Origin: Escherichia coli | GTDB taxonomy: Bacteria > Pseudomonadota > Gammaproteobacteria > Enterobacterales > Enterobacteriaceae | Direction: 5' to 3' (one strand) | DNA: 64,000 nucleotides | Assembly (NCBI RefSeq): GCF_016026235.1 | Contig: NZ_CP065613.1 | Part shown: positions 23,676 to 52,684 of the stretch, one piece after another | Numbering within the stretch: the first letter of the stretch is position 1 | Layout of the letters: every line of letters begins with the position of its first letter | Program-made: the position numbers and the translations under genes | The notes under the pieces: generated by a model | The model's database searches: none | What the model was told of the DNA's origin: nothing | Seen by the model: the letters and a program-made list of their open reading frames with translations, nothing else

Positions 23676-23824
23676 CACCTACCAACGCGCCGTTATTTCC
23701 TTACGGCGCAGTAAACTTCTGACACATATCGACTCACGTCACATTTTTTTGATCACGATTTGGTCCCTCAAAATGTGAGACGCTTCGATCCTCTTTTTCT
23801 CCCGTTCACCTACTATACGCTTGA

Positions 23825-23852
23825 AGTTGTCCATGATTGTCCATAGACAACT
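23825..23852 (+). promoter_or_regulatory. Candidate operator: 7-bp inverted repeat plus tandem TTGTCCAT half-sites immediately upstream of the GntR-family regulator
   Basis: AGTTGTCcatgaTTGTCCATaGACAACT located 13 bp upstream of the regulator ATG; function inferred only. Confidence 0.3.
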
Positions 23853-23864
23853 GTAAATGTTCAG

Positions 23865-24620
23865 GTGCGCGCCATGAAATCATTAAGTAAGTCGTCACAA
23901 ATACCGCTCTATCAACAAGTGGTGGAGTGGATAAGAGAAAGTATTTATACCGGAGATCTGGTGGAAGACGATCGCATTCCTTCGGAATACCAGATTATGG
24001 ATATGCTGGAAGTGAGTCGGGGAACCGTTAAAAAAGCGGTCGCCCAACTGGTAAAAGAAGGCGTGTTAATACAGGTCCAGGGTAAGGGAACATTTGTCAA
24101 AAAAGAGAACGTGGCATATCCGTTAGGTGAAGGATTATTGTCATTCGCGGAATCGCTGGAAAGCCAGAAAATACATTTTACCACTGAAGTTATTACGTCA
24201 CGGATTGAACCAGCTAATCGTTATGTGGCAGAGAAATTAAGAATAACTCCCGGTCAGGATATTCTTTACCTTGAACGCTTACGCTCAATTGGTGATGAAA
24301 AAGCGATGCTGATAGAGAACCGTATCAATATTGAGCTATGCCCCGGTATTGCGGAAATCGATTTTAATCAACACAATTTATTTCCAACAATAGAAAGTTT
24401 GTCGCAAAGAAAAATTCGTTACTCGGAAAGTCGCTATGCCGCGCGATTAATTGGTAATGAACGTGGTCATTTTTTAGATATCAGTGAAGACGCACCCGTT
24501 TTGCATCTGGAGCAGTTAGTCTTTTTCTCCCGAGGATTACCCATTGAGTTTGGCAACGTCTGGTTAAAAGGAAATAAATATTATCTTGGCACCGTACTGC
24601 AACGGCGGGAAGTGAGTTAA
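23865..24620 (+). CDS. GntR/HutC-family transcriptional regulator (wHTH + UTRA effector domain)
   Basis: 251 aa; N-terminal IPSEYQIMDMLEVSRGTVKKAVAQLVKEGVLIQVQGKGTFV is a typical GntR HTH; alternative ATG at 23874. Confidence 0.8.
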   Translation: MRAMKSLSKSSQIPLYQQVVEWIRESIYTGDLVEDDRIPSEYQIMDMLEVSRGTVKKAVAQLVKEGVLIQVQGKGTFVKKENVAYPLGEGLLSFAESLESQKIHFTTEVITSRIEPANRYVAEKLRITPGQDILYLERLRSIGDEKAMLIENRINIELCPGIAEIDFNQHNLFPTIESLSQRKIRYSESRYAARLIGNERGHFLDISEDAPVLHLEQLVFFSRGLPIEFGNVWLKGNKYYLGTVLQRREVS

Positions 24621-24644
24621 GTACACTTTTTTAAGAGGAATAAA

Positions 24645-25118
24645 ATGCAAGGCATACATTTTCAGGAAAATTATATTCAACGACTTCCGGCAGGGTTAAG
24701 CGTTGAACAGATCATCCGTCAGTTAGCGCAACCGTTGGTTGCCGCCGAGCTGGTCGTCCCTGATTTTGCCGATCACGTACTGAAACGTGAGGAGACGTAC
24801 CCAACGGGGCTGCCTACCGAACCACCGTGCGTCGCTATTCCGCACACGGACCATAAACATGTCAGGCACAATGCAATTGCCGTCGGCATCCTGCCGGAAC
24901 CGGTAGAGTTTGCCGATATGGGCGGCGATCCTGACCCCGTACCTGTCAGGGTGATTTTTTTGCTCGCCTTAAGCGAAAGTAATAAACAATTAAATGCCCT
25001 GGGCTGGATTATGGAAATGATTCAGGATACGCCCTTTATGCAAGCCCTGCTTGCGATGGAAACAACAGAAATACACACAGTAATCTTAAACAAAATGAAA
25101 GAACGAGGTGAAATATGA
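24645..25118 (+). CDS. PTS EIIA component (EIIA-2, mannitol/fructose/Ntr-type fold)
   Basis: 157 aa; active-site motif VAIPHTD (phosphorylatable His). Confidence 0.8.
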   Translation: MQGIHFQENYIQRLPAGLSVEQIIRQLAQPLVAAELVVPDFADHVLKREETYPTGLPTEPPCVAIPHTDHKHVRHNAIAVGILPEPVEFADMGGDPDPVPVRVIFLLALSESNKQLNALGWIMEMIQDTPFMQALLAMETTEIHTVILNKMKERGEI

Positions 25119-25396
25119 GTCAAACCATTTTATTTGTCTGCGCCACGGGTATTGCCACATCCACGGCGGTAACAGAAAAAGTCATGGAATATTGTAAAGA
25201 GCACGGTCTTAACGTCAATTATTCCCAAACCAACGTTGCCTCTTTACCTGGAAATACTGATGGCGTAGCACTGGTAGTCTCAACGACTAAAGTGCCTTAT
25301 GAACTCGACGTCCCGGTAGTTAACGGCTTGCCGATTATTACCGGTATTGGCGAAGAGAAAGTACTGGCGCAAATTGTTTCGATCCTTAAAAATTAA
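25115..25396 (+). CDS. PTS EIIB component, galactitol (GatB)-type
   Basis: 93 aa MSQTILFVCATGIATSTAVTEK...; N-terminal Cys-containing phosphotransfer motif as in GatB/SgcB. Confidence 0.8.
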   Translation: MSQTILFVCATGIATSTAVTEKVMEYCKEHGLNVNYSQTNVASLPGNTDGVALVVSTTKVPYELDVPVVNGLPIITGIGEEKVLAQIVSILKN

Positions 25397-25472
25397 TTAA
25401 TAATAATTAATTTCAACCCACTCCATCAGGCGCTAACGCGAGGTGCGCTCTCGCCTGAAAAAGAGGTTTATT

Positions 25473-26831
25473 ATGAACGATATCGCGCATACCCTCTATA
25501 ATATTGTGCAATATATATTGGGATTTGGCCCGACGGTAATGTTGCCGTTGGTGTTATTTATTCTTGCTCTCTGTTTTAAAGTAAAACCCGCTAAAGCCTT
25601 ACGTTCGTCATTAACAGTCGGCATTGGTTTTGTCGGTATTTATGCCATTTTCGATATTCTGACCAGCAATGTCGGGCCAGCGGCCCAGGCGATGGTTGAA
25701 CGCACCGGAATTAATTTACCGGTGGTAGATTTAGGCTGGCCGCCGCTTTCCGCTATTACATGGGGTTCGCCAATTGCCCCGTTTGTTATTCCCCTGACCA
25801 TTCTGATTAACGTGGCGATGCTGGCGTTAAATAAAACCCGTACCGTTGACGTAGATATGTGGAACTACTGGCATTTTGCCCTTGCTGGTACGTTGGTTTA
25901 TTACAGCACCGGCAGCCTGTTCTTTGGTTTGCTGGCGGCGGCGATTGCTGCGGTGGTAGTACTTAAACTCGCCGACTGGTCTGCGCCACTGGTACAAAAA
26001 TACTTTGGACTGGAAGGGATCTCATTGCCGACGCTCTCTTCGGTGGTGTTCTTCCCGGTCGGTCTGCTGGTCGACAAAATCATCGACCATATCCCCGGCC
26101 TCAATCGTATTCATATCGACCCGGAAACCGTACAGAAAAAGTTTGGCATCTTCGGCGAACCGATGATGGTTGGCACTATTCTGGGCATACTGCTCGGCGT
26201 GATTGCAGGATACGATTTCAAAAAAGTGTTGCTGCTTGGCATCAGCATTGGCGGTGTGATGTTCATCCTGCCACGCATGGTTCGCATCCTGATGGAAGGT
26301 TTATTACCGCTGTCTGAAGCCATTAAAAAGTATCTCAATGCCAAATACCCTGACCGTGACGATCTCTATATCGGACTGGATATCGCCGTTGCCGTAGGTA
26401 ATCCGGCGATTATCTCCACCGCCCTGCTGCTAACGCCAATCTCGGTCTTTATCGCGTTTGTCCTCCCAGGTAATGAAGTCCTGCCGCTTGGCGACCTTGC
26501 CAACCTGGCGGTAATGGCGTCGATGATTGCTTTAGCCAGCCGTGGCAATATTTTCCGCACCGTTCTGGCGGCGATCCCGGTGATTATTGCCGACCTGTGG
26601 ATTGCGACTAAAATCGCACCGTTTATTACCGGCATGGCGAAAGACGTTAACTTCAAATTTGCCGAAGGCTCCAGCGGCCAGGTTTCCAGTTTCCTTGATG
26701 GCGGTAACCCGTTCCGCTTCTGGCTGCTGGAAATCTTCAACGGCAATATCATCGCCATTGGTCTGGTGCCGGTTATCGCCCTGGTACTGTATGGCATTTT
26801 CCGAATGACGCGGAGCACGGTTTATGCCTGA
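25473..26831 (+). CDS. PTS EIIC permease, galactitol (GatC) family
   Basis: ORF 25443..26831; start placed at ATG 25473 after AAAGAGG RBS; motifs LGFGPTVMLP, GIGFVGI, GPAAQAM, DLGWP, IPGLNRI, KFGIFGEP, LPLGDLA, GNIFRT align to GatC as I recall it. Confidence 0.85.
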   Translation: MNDIAHTLYNIVQYILGFGPTVMLPLVLFILALCFKVKPAKALRSSLTVGIGFVGIYAIFDILTSNVGPAAQAMVERTGINLPVVDLGWPPLSAITWGSPIAPFVIPLTILINVAMLALNKTRTVDVDMWNYWHFALAGTLVYYSTGSLFFGLLAAAIAAVVVLKLADWSAPLVQKYFGLEGISLPTLSSVVFFPVGLLVDKIIDHIPGLNRIHIDPETVQKKFGIFGEPMMVGTILGILLGVIAGYDFKKVLLLGISIGGVMFILPRMVRILMEGLLPLSEAIKKYLNAKYPDRDDLYIGLDIAVAVGNPAIISTALLLTPISVFIAFVLPGNEVLPLGDLANLAVMASMIALASRGNIFRTVLAAIPVIIADLWIATKIAPFITGMAKDVNFKFAEGSSGQVSSFLDGGNPFRFWLLEIFNGNIIAIGLVPVIALVLYGIFRMTRSTVYA

Positions 26832-28332
26832 TAACAGCGCAGCTATCGTTATCGATATTGGCACCACCAATTGCAAAGTCACCTGCTTTTCCTGCCTGGA
26901 CGCAACGACGTTGGGCGCGCATAAATTCGTGACGGCAAAGCAGATCTCCCCACAGGGCGATGTCGATTTCGATATCGACGCCCTCTGGCAGGAGGTCCGC
27001 CAGGCGATAGCGCAACTGAACGCCGCTTCGCCGCTGCCAGTCAGACGGATCAGCATTGCCAGTTTTGGCGAATCAGGCGTGTTCCTTGACGAGCATGGCG
27101 AGATCCTGACGCCAATGCTGGCATGGTATGACCGTCGCGGTGAAGAGTATCTGGCAACGCTTAGCGAGGCAGACAGTGCGGCACTTTATGACATCTGCGG
27201 TCTACCACTACACAGCAATTACTCTGCCTTCAAAATGCGCTGGTTGCTGGAACATTACCCGCTGCGTAATCGCCGCGGCCTGCGCTGGCTACATGCGCCG
27301 GAAGTGCTGCTCTGGCGGCTGACTGGCGAACAGCGCACGGATATCACCTTAGCCAGCCGCACGCTGTGTCTGGACGTGCGCAAAGGCGAATGGTCAGCGA
27401 AAGCGGCGGCGTTGTTACACGTTCCCTGTACGGCATTTGCGCCATTGGTGCAGCCAGGCGAGCACGCCGGATGGGTCAGCGAGTCACTTTGCAAGACGCT
27501 TGGGTTCTCGCAACCGGTCAGCGTGACGCTGGCCGGACATGACCATATGGTGGGTGCGCGAGCGTTGCAGATGATGCCAGGCGATATCCTTAACTCGACG
27601 GGGACCACGGAAGGCATTCTGCAACTGGATACACAACCGACGCTGGATGAACAGGCCAAACGTGACAAGCTGGCAAACGGCTGTTACTCACTTGCCAACC
27701 AGTTCACCCTGTTTGCGTCGCTGCCCGTGGGCGGTTTCGCGCTGGAGTGGCTGCGCAACACGTTCCGGCTAACCGATGAGGAGATCGCCGCATCACTTAC
27801 TCGCGGACATGCTGATTATCTGGCGGGGAATTGGTTGCTCGATGACATTCCCGTCTTTATTCCACATCTTCGCGGTTCGGGTTCGCCCTATAAAAATCGC
27901 CATACCCGTGGATTATTTTATGGGCTTGGCGATACGTTAAGTATCGACATGTTAATTGCCAGCGTATCACTGGGATTAACCATGGAATTTGCCAACTGCT
28001 TCGCCTGTTTTAACGTGCCTGGCACCAGCGCGTTAAAAGTGATCGGTCCGGCAACCCATAATCCTCTTTGGCTGCAATTAAAGGCGGATATTTTACAGCG
28101 TCCGGTTGAAGCAATTGCATTTAACGAGGCGGTTTCTGTCGGAGCATTATTAACCGCCGCACCGGATATTCCACCGCCGCCAGTCGCTATAGCCCAACGT
28201 TTGTTACCGAATCGGGCGAGATACCATCAATTACAGCGTTATCAGCACAAATGGAAAAGCTGGTATCAGTTGAAATTACAACAAGAAGGCGTGATGCCAT
28301 TACATCATCGGGAGGAACACTATGTTGAATAA
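26824..28332 (+). CDS. FGGY-family carbohydrate kinase (substrate unknown)
   Basis: 502 aa; N-terminal AIVIDIGTTNCK, FGGY signature-1-like YSAFKMRWLLEH, C-terminal GTSALKVIGP; 8-nt overlap with EIIC gene. Confidence 0.75.
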   Translation: MPDNSAAIVIDIGTTNCKVTCFSCLDATTLGAHKFVTAKQISPQGDVDFDIDALWQEVRQAIAQLNAASPLPVRRISIASFGESGVFLDEHGEILTPMLAWYDRRGEEYLATLSEADSAALYDICGLPLHSNYSAFKMRWLLEHYPLRNRRGLRWLHAPEVLLWRLTGEQRTDITLASRTLCLDVRKGEWSAKAAALLHVPCTAFAPLVQPGEHAGWVSESLCKTLGFSQPVSVTLAGHDHMVGARALQMMPGDILNSTGTTEGILQLDTQPTLDEQAKRDKLANGCYSLANQFTLFASLPVGGFALEWLRNTFRLTDEEIAASLTRGHADYLAGNWLLDDIPVFIPHLRGSGSPYKNRHTRGLFYGLGDTLSIDMLIASVSLGLTMEFANCFACFNVPGTSALKVIGPATHNPLWLQLKADILQRPVEAIAFNEAVSVGALLTAAPDIPPPPVAIAQRLLPNRARYHQLQRYQHKWKSWYQLKLQQEGVMPLHHREEHYVE

Positions 28333-28591
28333 AACCGTGGAGGTCAGAAACAGTACTGGCCTGCATGCACGTCCGGCGGCCTGTCTGGCGAAAGCCGCCA
28401 AAAAATATAGCTGTAAAGTGACGCTGCACTATGAGGGTAATGATATTAATGCCACCAGCATGATGAATATTATGCGCGCCGGAATAAAAGGCGGAAAAAC
28501 GGTGGAAATACGCTGCGACGGTGATGATGAAAACGAGGCCATACAGACTCTCACCGACTTATTTCGCGACCGCTTCGGTGAAGCTGAATAA
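28322..28591 (+). CDS. HPr-family phosphocarrier protein (operon-specific paralog)
   Basis: 89 aa MLNKTVEVRNSTGLHARPAACLAKAAKKY...; His-15 motif GLHARPA. Confidence 0.8.
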   Translation: MLNKTVEVRNSTGLHARPAACLAKAAKKYSCKVTLHYEGNDINATSMMNIMRAGIKGGKTVEIRCDGDDENEAIQTLTDLFRDRFGEAE

Positions 28592-28622: not shown

Positions 28623-29483
28623 ATGCCATTAGTTAATGGACGGATACTGCTCGACCGCATTCAGGAAAAACGGGTATTAGCGGGCGCATTTAATACCACC
28701 AATCTGGAGACGACAATTTCAATTTTAAACGCTATTGAGCGTTCGGGATTACCCAACTTCATTCAGATTGCGCCAACCAATGCACAACTCTCGGGATACG
28801 ATTACATTTATGAAATCGTGAAACGTCACGCCGATAAAATGGATGTTCCGGTCAGTCTTCATCTGGATCACGGGAAAACTCAGGAGGATGTGAAACAGGC
28901 GGTGCGCGCGGGCTTTACCTCGGTCATGATTGACGGTGCCGCATTCTCTTTTGAAGAGAATATCGCTTTCACCCAGGAAGCTGTCGATTTCTGTAAATCC
29001 TATGGTGTACCGGTTGAAGCGGAGCTGGGGGCGATTCTCGGCAAAGAAGATGATCACGTCAGCGAAGCCGATTGCAAAACGGAACCGGAAAAGGTGAAGA
29101 CCTTTGTCGAGCGTACCGGTTGCGACATGCTGGCAGTTTCTATTGGCAACGTTCATGGCCTGGACGATATACCGCGTATCGATATCCCCCTGCTGAAGCG
29201 CATTGCCGAAGTCTGTCCGGTGCCGTTGGTTATTCACGGCGGCTCCGGTATCGCCCCGGAGATATTACGCAGCTTTGTTAATTATCGCGTCGCTAAAGTA
29301 AATATCGCCAGCGATCTGCGCAAAGCGTTTATCACCGCCGTCGGCAAAGCGTATGTGAATAATCACAACGAGGCGAATCTGGCACGAGTCATGGCATCAG
29401 CAAAAAACGCCGTCGAGGAAGATGTGTATAGCAAAATCCTGATGATGAATGAGGGGCATCGGTTGGTTAGAAAGGCATCTTAA
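28623..29483 (+). CDS. Class II ketose-bisphosphate aldolase (GatY/KbaY/FbaA family)
   Basis: 286 aa; metal-binding motifs LHLDHG and IHGGSG. Confidence 0.85.
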   Translation: MPLVNGRILLDRIQEKRVLAGAFNTTNLETTISILNAIERSGLPNFIQIAPTNAQLSGYDYIYEIVKRHADKMDVPVSLHLDHGKTQEDVKQAVRAGFTSVMIDGAAFSFEENIAFTQEAVDFCKSYGVPVEAELGAILGKEDDHVSEADCKTEPEKVKTFVERTGCDMLAVSIGNVHGLDDIPRIDIPLLKRIAEVCPVPLVIHGGSGIAPEILRSFVNYRVAKVNIASDLRKAFITAVGKAYVNNHNEANLARVMASAKNAVEEDVYSKILMMNEGHRLVRKAS

Positions 29484-29532: not shown

Positions 29533-29892
29533 TTATAAATGATTCAAACGCTCATTCAGTGTTTCAATAATATAGGTATTAACAGAGACTTGTTGCTGCG
29601 CAGCCGCATTATTAAGGCGTTCACTCAGCGATTCTGGATAGCGTAACGTAAAGGTCTTAATCTTTTCTGTACGCGCATACGGCTCAATACCCGCAGCTTT
29701 ACAATCCTCAAGATACTCTAGCAGGGAAAGTTCCCCTTCTTTTTGCAGCCCCTGAATGCTGTCAGAGACAAAATCACAATAACCTGACAAGCCCAGGAAT
29801 TTGCCACGAAATGCATTCAGTTCTGGCACGTAAGTGATAACAGCAGGTTGCCCGGCAATCTCCATTGAGTTTGGCGTCTTCAGTTTGATCAT
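29533..29892 (-). CDS. HicB-like antitoxin (C-terminal ribbon-helix-helix-like DNA-binding tail)
   Basis: 119 aa MIKLKTPNSMEIAGQPAVITYVPELNAFRGKFLGLSGYCDF...RYPESLSERLNNAAAQQQVSVNTYIIETLNERL; 4-bp overlap with upstream small ORF. Confidence 0.6.
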   Translation of the reverse strand: MIKLKTPNSMEIAGQPAVITYVPELNAFRGKFLGLSGYCDFVSDSIQGLQKEGELSLLEYLEDCKAAGIEPYARTEKIKTFTLRYPESLSERLNNAAAQQQVSVNTYIIETLNERLNHL

Positions 29893-30164
29893 GGTTTTAC
29901 CCCTATACTTAGTAACCAGTCACGCACGCTTTCTACAGCGCCTTTATCGGTATCTGGCGACGGATGAGGCCGATGGAAACACGCAACGCTCATATTTAGT
30001 ATGAACTTACAACGCGAACCTCTTCCTTCCTTAATTTCTCCGCCTAATGCTTTAACCTGTGACTCTATATCAGACCACTTGATCCCTTGAGGAACAGGAG
30101 TTTTAAATATTTGATCCAATGTATTTTTTTGTTTCTTCCGTAAAGCCTGTACCTTGGTTCTCAT
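29889..30164 (-). CDS. HicA-like mRNA-interferase toxin
   Basis: 91 aa; ...WSDIESQVKALGGE...GSRCKF...HRPHP...AVESVRDWLLSIGV resembles HicA (W-x-ES...GS...PRHP...) pattern; upstream of and overlapping the HicB-like gene. Confidence 0.55.
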   Translation of the reverse strand: MRTKVQALRKKQKNTLDQIFKTPVPQGIKWSDIESQVKALGGEIKEGRGSRCKFILNMSVACFHRPHPSPDTDKGAVESVRDWLLSIGVKP

Positions 30165-52439: not shown

Positions 52440-52533
52440 AGCATTGATGCGTTAGATGATGGCATTCTCACTCCAGCCAGAGCCACCAACTCAGGTCTGG
52501 AAAGTAAAAAACCGACGCAAAGTCGGTTTTTTT
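52440..52533 (+). ncRNA. agrB: Agr-like antisense sRNA (AgrB-type antitoxin RNA of dinQ) with intrinsic terminator; 5' end approximate
   Basis: Contains atggcattctcactccagccagagc, near-identical in direct orientation to 52259..52285 inside the predicted dinQ transcript (hence antisense to dinQ mRNA); ends aaaaaaCCGACgcaaaGTCGGttttttt. Confidence 0.55.
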
Positions 52534-52684
52534 ACGTCCTGATTCAGACCTCCTTTCAAATGAATGCCCAACGCTTAATTCACACCTATACCTTTCTCTA
52601 CACTTACATATTCGTTAAGTCATATATGTTTTTGACTTGTCCGCTTCAAAGAGAGACACTACCTGCAACAATCAGGAGCGCAAT

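Follow-up and report, generated by a model that had tools for sequence, protein, structure and literature searches.

A conserved intercistronic hairpin element upstream of the EIIC gene in a Gat-type PTS operon of Enterobacterales, and its possible part in translation initiation

Why does the one large gap in an otherwise tightly packed PTS operon of Escherichia coli hold a GC-rich stem-loop, placed a few nucleotides before the gene for the membrane subunit? The locus lies in a window of 64,000 nucleotides (the whole stretch of DNA that was analysed; contig NZ_CP065613.1 of assembly GCF_016026235.1), on an accessory island in the chromosome, with nikR and yhhJ on either side of the insertion. 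The island carries a GntR/HutC-family regulator gene (23874-24620, ATG at 23874), followed by the galactitol (Gat) family PTS genes for EIIA (24645-25118), EIIB (25115-25396, plus strand, 93 aa, with a TAA stop at 25394-25396) and EIIC (25473-26831, plus strand, 452 aa). Behind these come the genes for an FGGY kinase (26824-28332), whose start overlaps the end of the EIIC gene, for an HPr-like protein (28322-28591), which overlaps the kinase gene, and for a class II aldolase (28623-29483). With its GntR regulator, Gat-type EIIA, EIIB and EIIC, FGGY kinase, HPr-like protein and class II aldolase, the operon represents an uncharacterised sugar pathway. A preliminary description of this DNA had named the genes on either side of the hairpin as PTS EIIB and EIIC. 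This was correct: the EIIB coordinates are those of the ORF list and of RefSeq in identical loci, the EIIC coordinates are those of the ORF with its ATG at the RefSeq start in identical loci, and the two proteins match NCBIfam PRK10310 (E 1.9e-16) and TIGR00827 (E 7.9e-143), respectively.

The same description had taken the spacer to be the largest gap in a mostly overlapping operon, which agrees with our counts, but had given its length as 47 bp. The true gap is 76 nt (25397-25472), compared with +24, -4, -8, -11 and +31 nt at the other junctions of the operon, and a count that stops at an in-frame GTG at 25443 gives the smaller figure. The 30 nt from 25443 to 25472 are open and in frame with EIIC, and mechanical ORF callers extend the EIIC gene 10 codons into the hairpin as a result. 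Small ORFs were considered for the spacer and rejected, the sole candidates being an antisense ORF of 32 aa that starts with TTG and the GTG at 25443, which has no Shine-Dalgarno sequence (SD); upstream AUGs found in some spacers of the Klebsiella clade are not conserved. The hairpin has its place between coding sequences, at the boundary of two translationally coupled gene blocks and at the junction of soluble and membrane subunits.

Of 5426 complete E. coli genomes, 1637 (~30%) carry the island, as a single chromosomal copy in every case. The carriers include O157:H7 (genes ECs_4349-4355 of strain Sakai), O145 and ST131, and the operon also occurs in Salmonella, with matches in many serovars. 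A literature search found no RNA-level data for ECs4349-4355 or STM3781-3784. One locus, from E. coli FDAARGOS_943, is otherwise identical to the window over 23874-26831, and RefSeq flags an internal stop in its GntR-family gene and a frameshift in its EIIC gene; both ORFs are intact in the window, and the annotation indicates pseudogenisation of the operon at the level of the strain. Two Salmonella enterica loci (L057 and L058) have the distal order kinase, aldolase, HPr-like, where E. coli has kinase, HPr-like, aldolase. The aldolase of L058 is called in two fragments (67 and 214 aa) and L057 has no called aldolase or EIIA gene, so that the pathway may have decayed in some serovars. The neighbourhood of the island differs in Salmonella as well, with MFS transporter, DUF1198 and RelE-family genes. 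In the window, a hicA/hicB type II toxin-antitoxin pair lies on the minus strand at 29533-30164, directly 3' of the aldolase gene, at the island edge adjoining yhhJ.

Within the spacer, the order of elements in E. coli can be read as follows. The 30 nt between the EIIB stop and the conserved motif described below (25397-25426) are 77% A+T, and this AT-rich tract (25397-25425, plus strand) is a candidate single-stranded enhancer or RNase E-accessible segment. The hairpin follows, its 31-mer CAGGCGCTAACGCGAGGTGCGCTCTCGCCTG being present at 25427-25457 as had been described. As a plus-strand stem-loop it spans 25426-25458, with an outer stem of 7 bp (25426-25432 with 25452-25458; U-CAGGCG / CGCCUG-A), an inner stem of 3 bp (CGC/GCG; 25437-25439 with 25445-25447) and an apical loop GAGGU (25440-25444). 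Symmetric internal loops, two CU/CU with an A·C mismatch, lie between the stems. The two nested stems originally proposed, CAGGCG/CGCCTG and GCGAG/CTCGC, overlap in the bases of their 3' arms and cannot coexist. From the hairpin end to the EIIC ATG we count 15 nt, close to the approximately 16 nt given before. The EIIC SD, AGAGG, is read from the sequence at 25462-25466 on the plus strand, 6 nt 5' of the ATG; its form in orthologues is AGAGG, AGGGG or CGAGG.

The fold of this hairpin is, in E. coli alone, no better than chance. The minimum free energy (MFE) and centroid structures agree, and the energy is -12.6 kcal/mol for the 31-mer and -15.3 kcal/mol with the U-A pair; however, 19 of 200 shuffled sequences fold as well (z-score -1.32), and the surrounding 3 kb holds 88 inverted repeats of at least 6 nt. 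The original observation is confirmed in part: the element is conserved in Enterobacterales, and its folding energy by itself lies within chance. What lifts the element above chance is the comparative conservation of its position and of its 5' half.

A GC-rich stem-loop inside an operon could in principle be an intrinsic terminator or attenuator that cuts read-through into EIIC, and attenuation was among the functions first put forward for it. Neither strand has a U-tract after the stem, the sequence there being AAAAAGAGG in the plus and AUGGAGUGGG in the minus direction, and a terminator scan called no site at the hairpin on either strand. No leader or alternative antiterminator arrangement was found. 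A scan for promoters gave no promoter-like site in the EIIB-EIIC spacer, and the genes downstream of a terminator here would lack a promoter. We rejected the class of terminator and attenuator for the lack of a U-tract, and regard such a function as extremely improbable.

Conservation within the species was measured by comparing 1633 E. coli genomes with the window in successive segments of 50 nt and counting those that were identical. The segment holding the end of EIIB and the AT tract (25376-25425) is identical in 176 of the 1633 genomes, the segment with the hairpin, SD and ATG (25426-25475) in 1613, the first EIIC codons (25476-25525) in 1627 and the next stretch of EIIC coding sequence (25526-25575) in 496. 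These counts place the hairpin in a near-invariant island of ~100 nt centred on the EIIC start. The AT tract is the polymorphic part of the spacer within E. coli. In the single variant inspected, the change falls between the SD and the ATG and leaves the stem unaffected.

For comparison across genera, orthologues were collected by a scan with the EIIC protein, with one genome per species (50 loci), and Salmonella was added by protein search. All 19 Enterobacterales orthologues (about 19 genera; EIIC 89-100% identical) have the same spacer layout, among them members of Escherichia, Citrobacter, Salmonella, Klebsiella, Enterobacter, Phytobacter, Trabulsiella, Mangrovibacter, Cedecea, Rahnella, Pantoea, Winslowiella and Izhakiella. 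The order is always EIIB stop, AT-rich tract, an 18-mer CAGGCGCTAACGCGAGGT, a 3' complement that varies by clade, SD and EIIC ATG. The near-invariant 18-mer (25427-25444 in the window, plus strand) makes up the 5' arm and loop of the hairpin and contains an SD-like GAGG. It starts 27-33 nt after the EIIB stop, with one exception at 50 nt (the 33 nt of locus L012 were counted by eye), and 44-47 nt before the EIIC ATG in all orthologues, and the whole spacer measures 72-79 nt in all but one. Between genera the AT-rich tract keeps its length and its composition (68-87% A+T where measured), and its sequence varies.

In a 2.3-kb alignment of 17 sequences, the mean column identity of the 18-mer is 0.948, against 0.81 overall. 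It ranks 10th of 2335 sliding windows and is the third best of the non-overlapping 18-nt windows, level with the Trp/Met-rich codons of EIIC, which are its most tightly constrained ones. Each orthologous locus has a single copy of the motif, always in the EIIB-EIIC spacer. A metagenome scan that was anchored on the EIIC N-terminus, and hence blind to the motif, returned 46 loci with 8 distinct spacers, all of which carry it; one of these spacers has the loop variant AATTCG. In the Enterococcus and Lactobacillus orthologues the EIIB and EIIC genes are nearly adjacent and the element is absent, as it is from those Firmicutes orthologues in which the two genes adjoin. Hairpins in the EIIB-EIIC spacers of Selenomonadaceae and Atopobiaceae were examined as independent counterparts and set aside, as they are unrelated and fold no better than shuffled sequences (z -1.5 to +1.65). 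The paralogous gat operon likewise offers no analogue, with gatB and gatC of K-12 only 3 nt apart. Judged by these comparisons, the element is real and under strong selection. It is restricted to one lineage and, as a probable RNA element between cistrons, belongs to a general kind that is familiar.

The two halves of the hairpin are conserved very differently. The 3' half is not conserved in sequence, and each clade has its own way of pairing it with the invariant 5' half. The hairpins of Escherichia and Citrobacter share one common register, while Winslowiella, Pantoea, Izhakiella and E. cancerogenus pair as GGCG-(C)-UAACG / CGUUA-CGCC. In Klebsiella, Salmonella, Rahnella and Cedecea the best fold is a short hairpin, CCAGGC/GUCUGG, with the long form still possible; C-A mismatches occur in the long stem in the Klebsiella/Salmonella clade. 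Energies across orthologues range from -9 to -16 kcal/mol. In the long structure 76.8% of cells are paired, compared with 27-46% in slid registers, and in the short structure 85.4%, compared with 23-60%. In the outer stem, counted across 18 orthologues, 97 of 108 cells pair when read as the plus strand and 88 when read as the minus strand, the better fit to the plus strand being due to G-C to G-U changes. This stem has one compensatory change, which replaces A-U by G-C in two genera; G-U and A·C occur as intermediates. Shuffle controls on the main stem are not significant and there is little real covariation, both because the 5' arm never varies. Single-sequence folding energies are only modestly better than with the 3' half shuffled (shuffle fractions 0.003-0.18). 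The RNAalifold consensus does not recover the long hairpin, giving instead a mini-hairpin GCG-CUAA-CGC and a 4-bp helix between the 3' arm (GYCU, 25453-25456) and the SD (RGGU, 25464-25467).

This asymmetry also bears on whether the element acts as DNA. A role as an internal promoter element, or as an operator of the GntR/HutC repressor or some other regulator, would have in its favour that the region is an imperfect palindrome, and that strand preference by folding energy is mixed, the minus strand folding at least as well as the plus strand in Escherichia and in the Pantoea-like clade. A symmetric DNA site was nonetheless rejected, since between genera only one half of the palindrome is conserved, which does not fit dimeric binding, and the spacer holds no promoter-like site. 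The operon also has a HutC/GntR-type operator palindrome elsewhere, TTGTCCATAGACAA at 23837-23850, which is conserved and lies 5' of the regulator gene. As its sequence is unrelated to the spacer motif, of which only one half is conserved, an operator of the GT-N-TA-N-AC type was dismissed for the spacer. A DNA-level role is accordingly very unlikely, and even together with termination it would account for the element with only slight probability at most.

The region upstream of the GntR-family gene (23728-23850) has a promoter architecture that is kept across genera. It contains two CRP-like (TGTGA) sites, at ~23728-23743 (degenerate in E. coli) and as TGTGAGACGCTTCGAT at 23774-23789, a -10-like TACTATAC, and a half-repeat GTTGTCCATG that precedes the operator palindrome. 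This arrangement suggests that the operon is controlled by CRP activation and GntR repression.

Several known classes of element were also compared with the hairpin. A REP/BIME or other dispersed repeat was rejected, as the element is found at one place per genome in the 1633 E. coli genomes (E<=10), and within the window the 18-mer matches once even with up to 3 mismatches. The only Rfam 15 model hit at E<=10 is that of a nematode snoRNA, a chance match of 14.9 bits where the gathering threshold is 65 bits, and no match inside the operon reaches a gathering threshold. A CsrA-binding hairpin was likewise discarded: most orthologues have the loop GAGGU, CAGGU or GAGGC, only two have GGA in it, and the SD has no GGA.

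The strong conservation, the fixed distance to the EIIC SD and ATG, and the position at the boundary of two coupled gene blocks make the element compatible with the post-transcriptional setting of membrane versus soluble subunit expression, as had been suggested at the outset. An invariant 5' arm and loop beside a 3' arm that is free to vary is not what a simple stabiliser would show, and points to the translation-initiation region of EIIC and to sequence-specific recognition. Our preferred reading, which we hold tentatively, is that of a plus-strand cis RNA element that forms part of a structured, split EIIC RBS, and whose invariant 5' arm and loop may be read by a putative trans factor. It is placed in the EIIC initiation region by its fixed SD and ATG spacing, by the near-invariant early codons and by an SD for which a mostly paired state is predicted throughout the orthologues; the putative reader is argued for by an invariant 5' arm and loop whose complement drifts. 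From the sequence comparisons, then, we infer action at the RNA level, a role in a split RBS and the existence of a trans factor.

In such an arrangement the spacer would be built as an AU-rich tract, a stem-loop, an A-rich linker, the SD and the AUG. The A/U-rich tract lies upstream of the SD and is not contiguous with it, a hairpin of ~32 nt standing between them. The tract would recruit the 30S subunit through ribosomal protein S1, and the closed hairpin would both bring the tract beside the SD and hold the pyrimidine-rich 3' arm, with its anti-SD-like GCCU, off the SD. The spacer may in this way set the amount of EIIC relative to EIIA and EIIB, with the kinase and HPr-like genes, presumed to be translationally coupled, following EIIC. 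An sRNA or a protein might in addition recognise the invariant motif in trans. The context of the start codon is also predicted to be structured: the 121-nt context folds with -27.7 kcal/mol (z -2.81), and in E. coli the SD is predicted to pair with CCUCU in EIIC codons 7-9 (25493-25497, plus strand). Pairing of the SD with these codons was not established as a conserved feature, as they vary synonymously across genera.

The GCCU of the 3' arm (25453-25456, plus strand) complements both the 5' arm (AGGC) and the SD (AGGU, 25464-25467), and is a possible anti-SD. In the helix between 3' arm and SD 97.2% of cells are paired, compared with 12-67% in slid registers; 3-6 of 500 shuffles reach the observed values, and 3 cells carry a compensatory U-A to C-G change. 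The helix is thermodynamically weak (4 bp) and may be a by-product of the SD-like 5' arm (AGGC). It could nevertheless be one state of a switch with three parts, the SD-mimicking invariant 5' arm, the anti-SD 3' arm and the SD, in which a putative sRNA or protein binds the 18-mer and frees the anti-SD onto the SD, shutting off EIIC and the coupled enzymes independently of EIIA and EIIB. In the Klebsiella/Salmonella clade the freed anti-SD would fall onto the AUG instead. When the 18-mer was blocked in silico, the accessibility of the SD and AUG was unchanged on average, so that a simple anti-SD switch is not supported by thermodynamics, and we consider the three-part switch doubtful.

The tract and hairpin can also be seen as a module for mRNA processing or stability, in line with the first suggestion of a stability determinant. 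RNase E would cut the AU-rich tract or the A-rich linker and the hairpin would cap either the distal fragment (EIIC-kinase-HPr-aldolase) at its 5' end or the proximal one (EIIA-EIIB) at its 3' end, so that the two halves of the transcript differ in half-life. RNase E sites usually have just such a setting, an AU-rich single-stranded tract beside a stable stem-loop. The tract is moreover conserved in length and composition and not in sequence, and the hairpin lies where the genes for soluble subunits give way to those for membrane subunits. However, a purely structural barrier should show covariation in both arms, and here the 5' arm and loop are invariant. The hairpin is also modest (at most -16 kcal/mol in any orthologue), the long stem has C-A mismatches in the Klebsiella/Salmonella clade, and the fixed SD spacing and conserved early coding region point to translation initiation. 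Processing is for these reasons a somewhat unlikely function, though one to be taken seriously beside the split EIIC RBS.

An invariant single arm would be best explained by a second, conserved pairing partner, and the 18-mer may on this ground be a docking site for a base-pairing sRNA, serving either to regulate EIIC translation or to trap the sRNA. An A-rich, ARN-like tract (GAAAAAGAG) adjoins the 18-mer, the CRP-like promoter sites would fit catabolite-linked sRNA circuits, and there are precedents in PTS spacers, namely chbB-chbC with ChiX (PMC4104026) and manX-manY with SgrS (bioRxiv 10.1101/808485). Against this, the site is largely buried in the stem, no complement of about 19 nt or more is found elsewhere in E. 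coli genomes, and none is found in the operon within 3 mismatches. ChiX, CyaR, Spot 42, RyhB, GlmZ and FnrS presumably offer only short or structurally buried matches to the motif, to which we give no weight as evidence; for ChiX we take the sole complementarity to be ~7 nt long, located at the E. coli SD and not kept in the other clades. Scans for a long-range partner duplex within the transcript repeatedly gave ~26472-26493, 25959, ~25752-25755 and 26820, and an 8-mer scan gave +1020. The three sites inspected (~26490, 25959 and 25755) are coding and show ordinary synonymous variation; intramolecular partners of the motif were rejected on this account, and their drift likewise counts against a conserved pairing partner. 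Docking of an sRNA, taken as the whole function of the motif, is on balance unlikely.

How does the split EIIC RBS compare with known systems? In the mannose PTS, translation of the EIIC cistron is driven by a U-rich enhancer that lies upstream in the manX-manY spacer; this enhancer interacts with S1 and is a target of SgrS (bioRxiv 10.1101/808485). Like the present spacer, that of manX-manY is found inside a PTS operon just 5' of the membrane (EIIC) cistron, has a structured initiation region, and holds an A/U-rich element ~30 nt or more before the start and apart from the SD. It belongs to a system of E. coli and Salmonella (SgrS with Hfq) and has no sequence similarity to the present spacer, which differs from it in the GC-rich hairpin, conserved and with an invariant 18-mer, that stands between its AU-rich tract and its SD. 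The two parts of the thrS RBS are set apart by a stem-loop whose sequence is read by the trans-acting repressor ThrRS. The AU-rich upstream tract is there, as here, not contiguous with the SD, and this S1 site makes the thrS RBS a bipartite one (bioRxiv 10.1101/808485). The thrS element is, however, a 5' leader and the present one an intercistronic spacer; the thrS hairpin mimics a tRNA anticodon arm, unlike the present hairpin, and thrS has a repressor, whereas none is encoded at the present operon.

The chbB-chbC spacer of the chitobiose PTS operon, also an EIIB-EIIC junction with a conserved non-coding sequence, acts by pairing with the sRNA ChiX (PMC4104026); it is complementary to ChiX, and the searches in E. 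coli genomes and in the operon gave no such partner for the present motif. The REP/BIME between malE and malF resembles the present hairpin as a GC-rich intercistronic stem-loop between genes for soluble and membrane proteins, and is the model behind the stability idea. REP elements are dispersed in hundreds of copies, whereas the present element occurs once per genome and lacks the REP consensus. A non-coding 18-mer conserved like the best codons would mark a post-transcriptional control point at the soluble/membrane junction, and RNA regulation is known at the same kind of junction in the man and chb PTS operons. If either the split RBS or the factor-binding switch is true, the present spacer would be a third example beside these two, unrelated to them in sequence. 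It would introduce no new principle, and would offer a handle on how enteric bacteria limit a polytopic transporter relative to its partners.

Some further features of the window were seen in passing. A perfect 10-bp AT-only inverted repeat, AAATTAATTA-ATAA-TAATTAATTT, lies over the EIIB stop codon at 25390-25413. It is specific to this allele, the other aligned E. coli having G at 25393 and Lys, not Asn, as the last EIIB residue; it is missing from other genera and is probably low-complexity sequence. Outside the operon, two matches reach Rfam gathering thresholds: AgrB, the antisense RNA of the arsR-gor region, at 52452-52535 on the plus strand (103 bits), and the RNA thermometer of the shuA/chuA 5' UTR at 61285-61316 on the minus strand (60 bits), the latter fitting the haem-uptake island of O157 Sakai.
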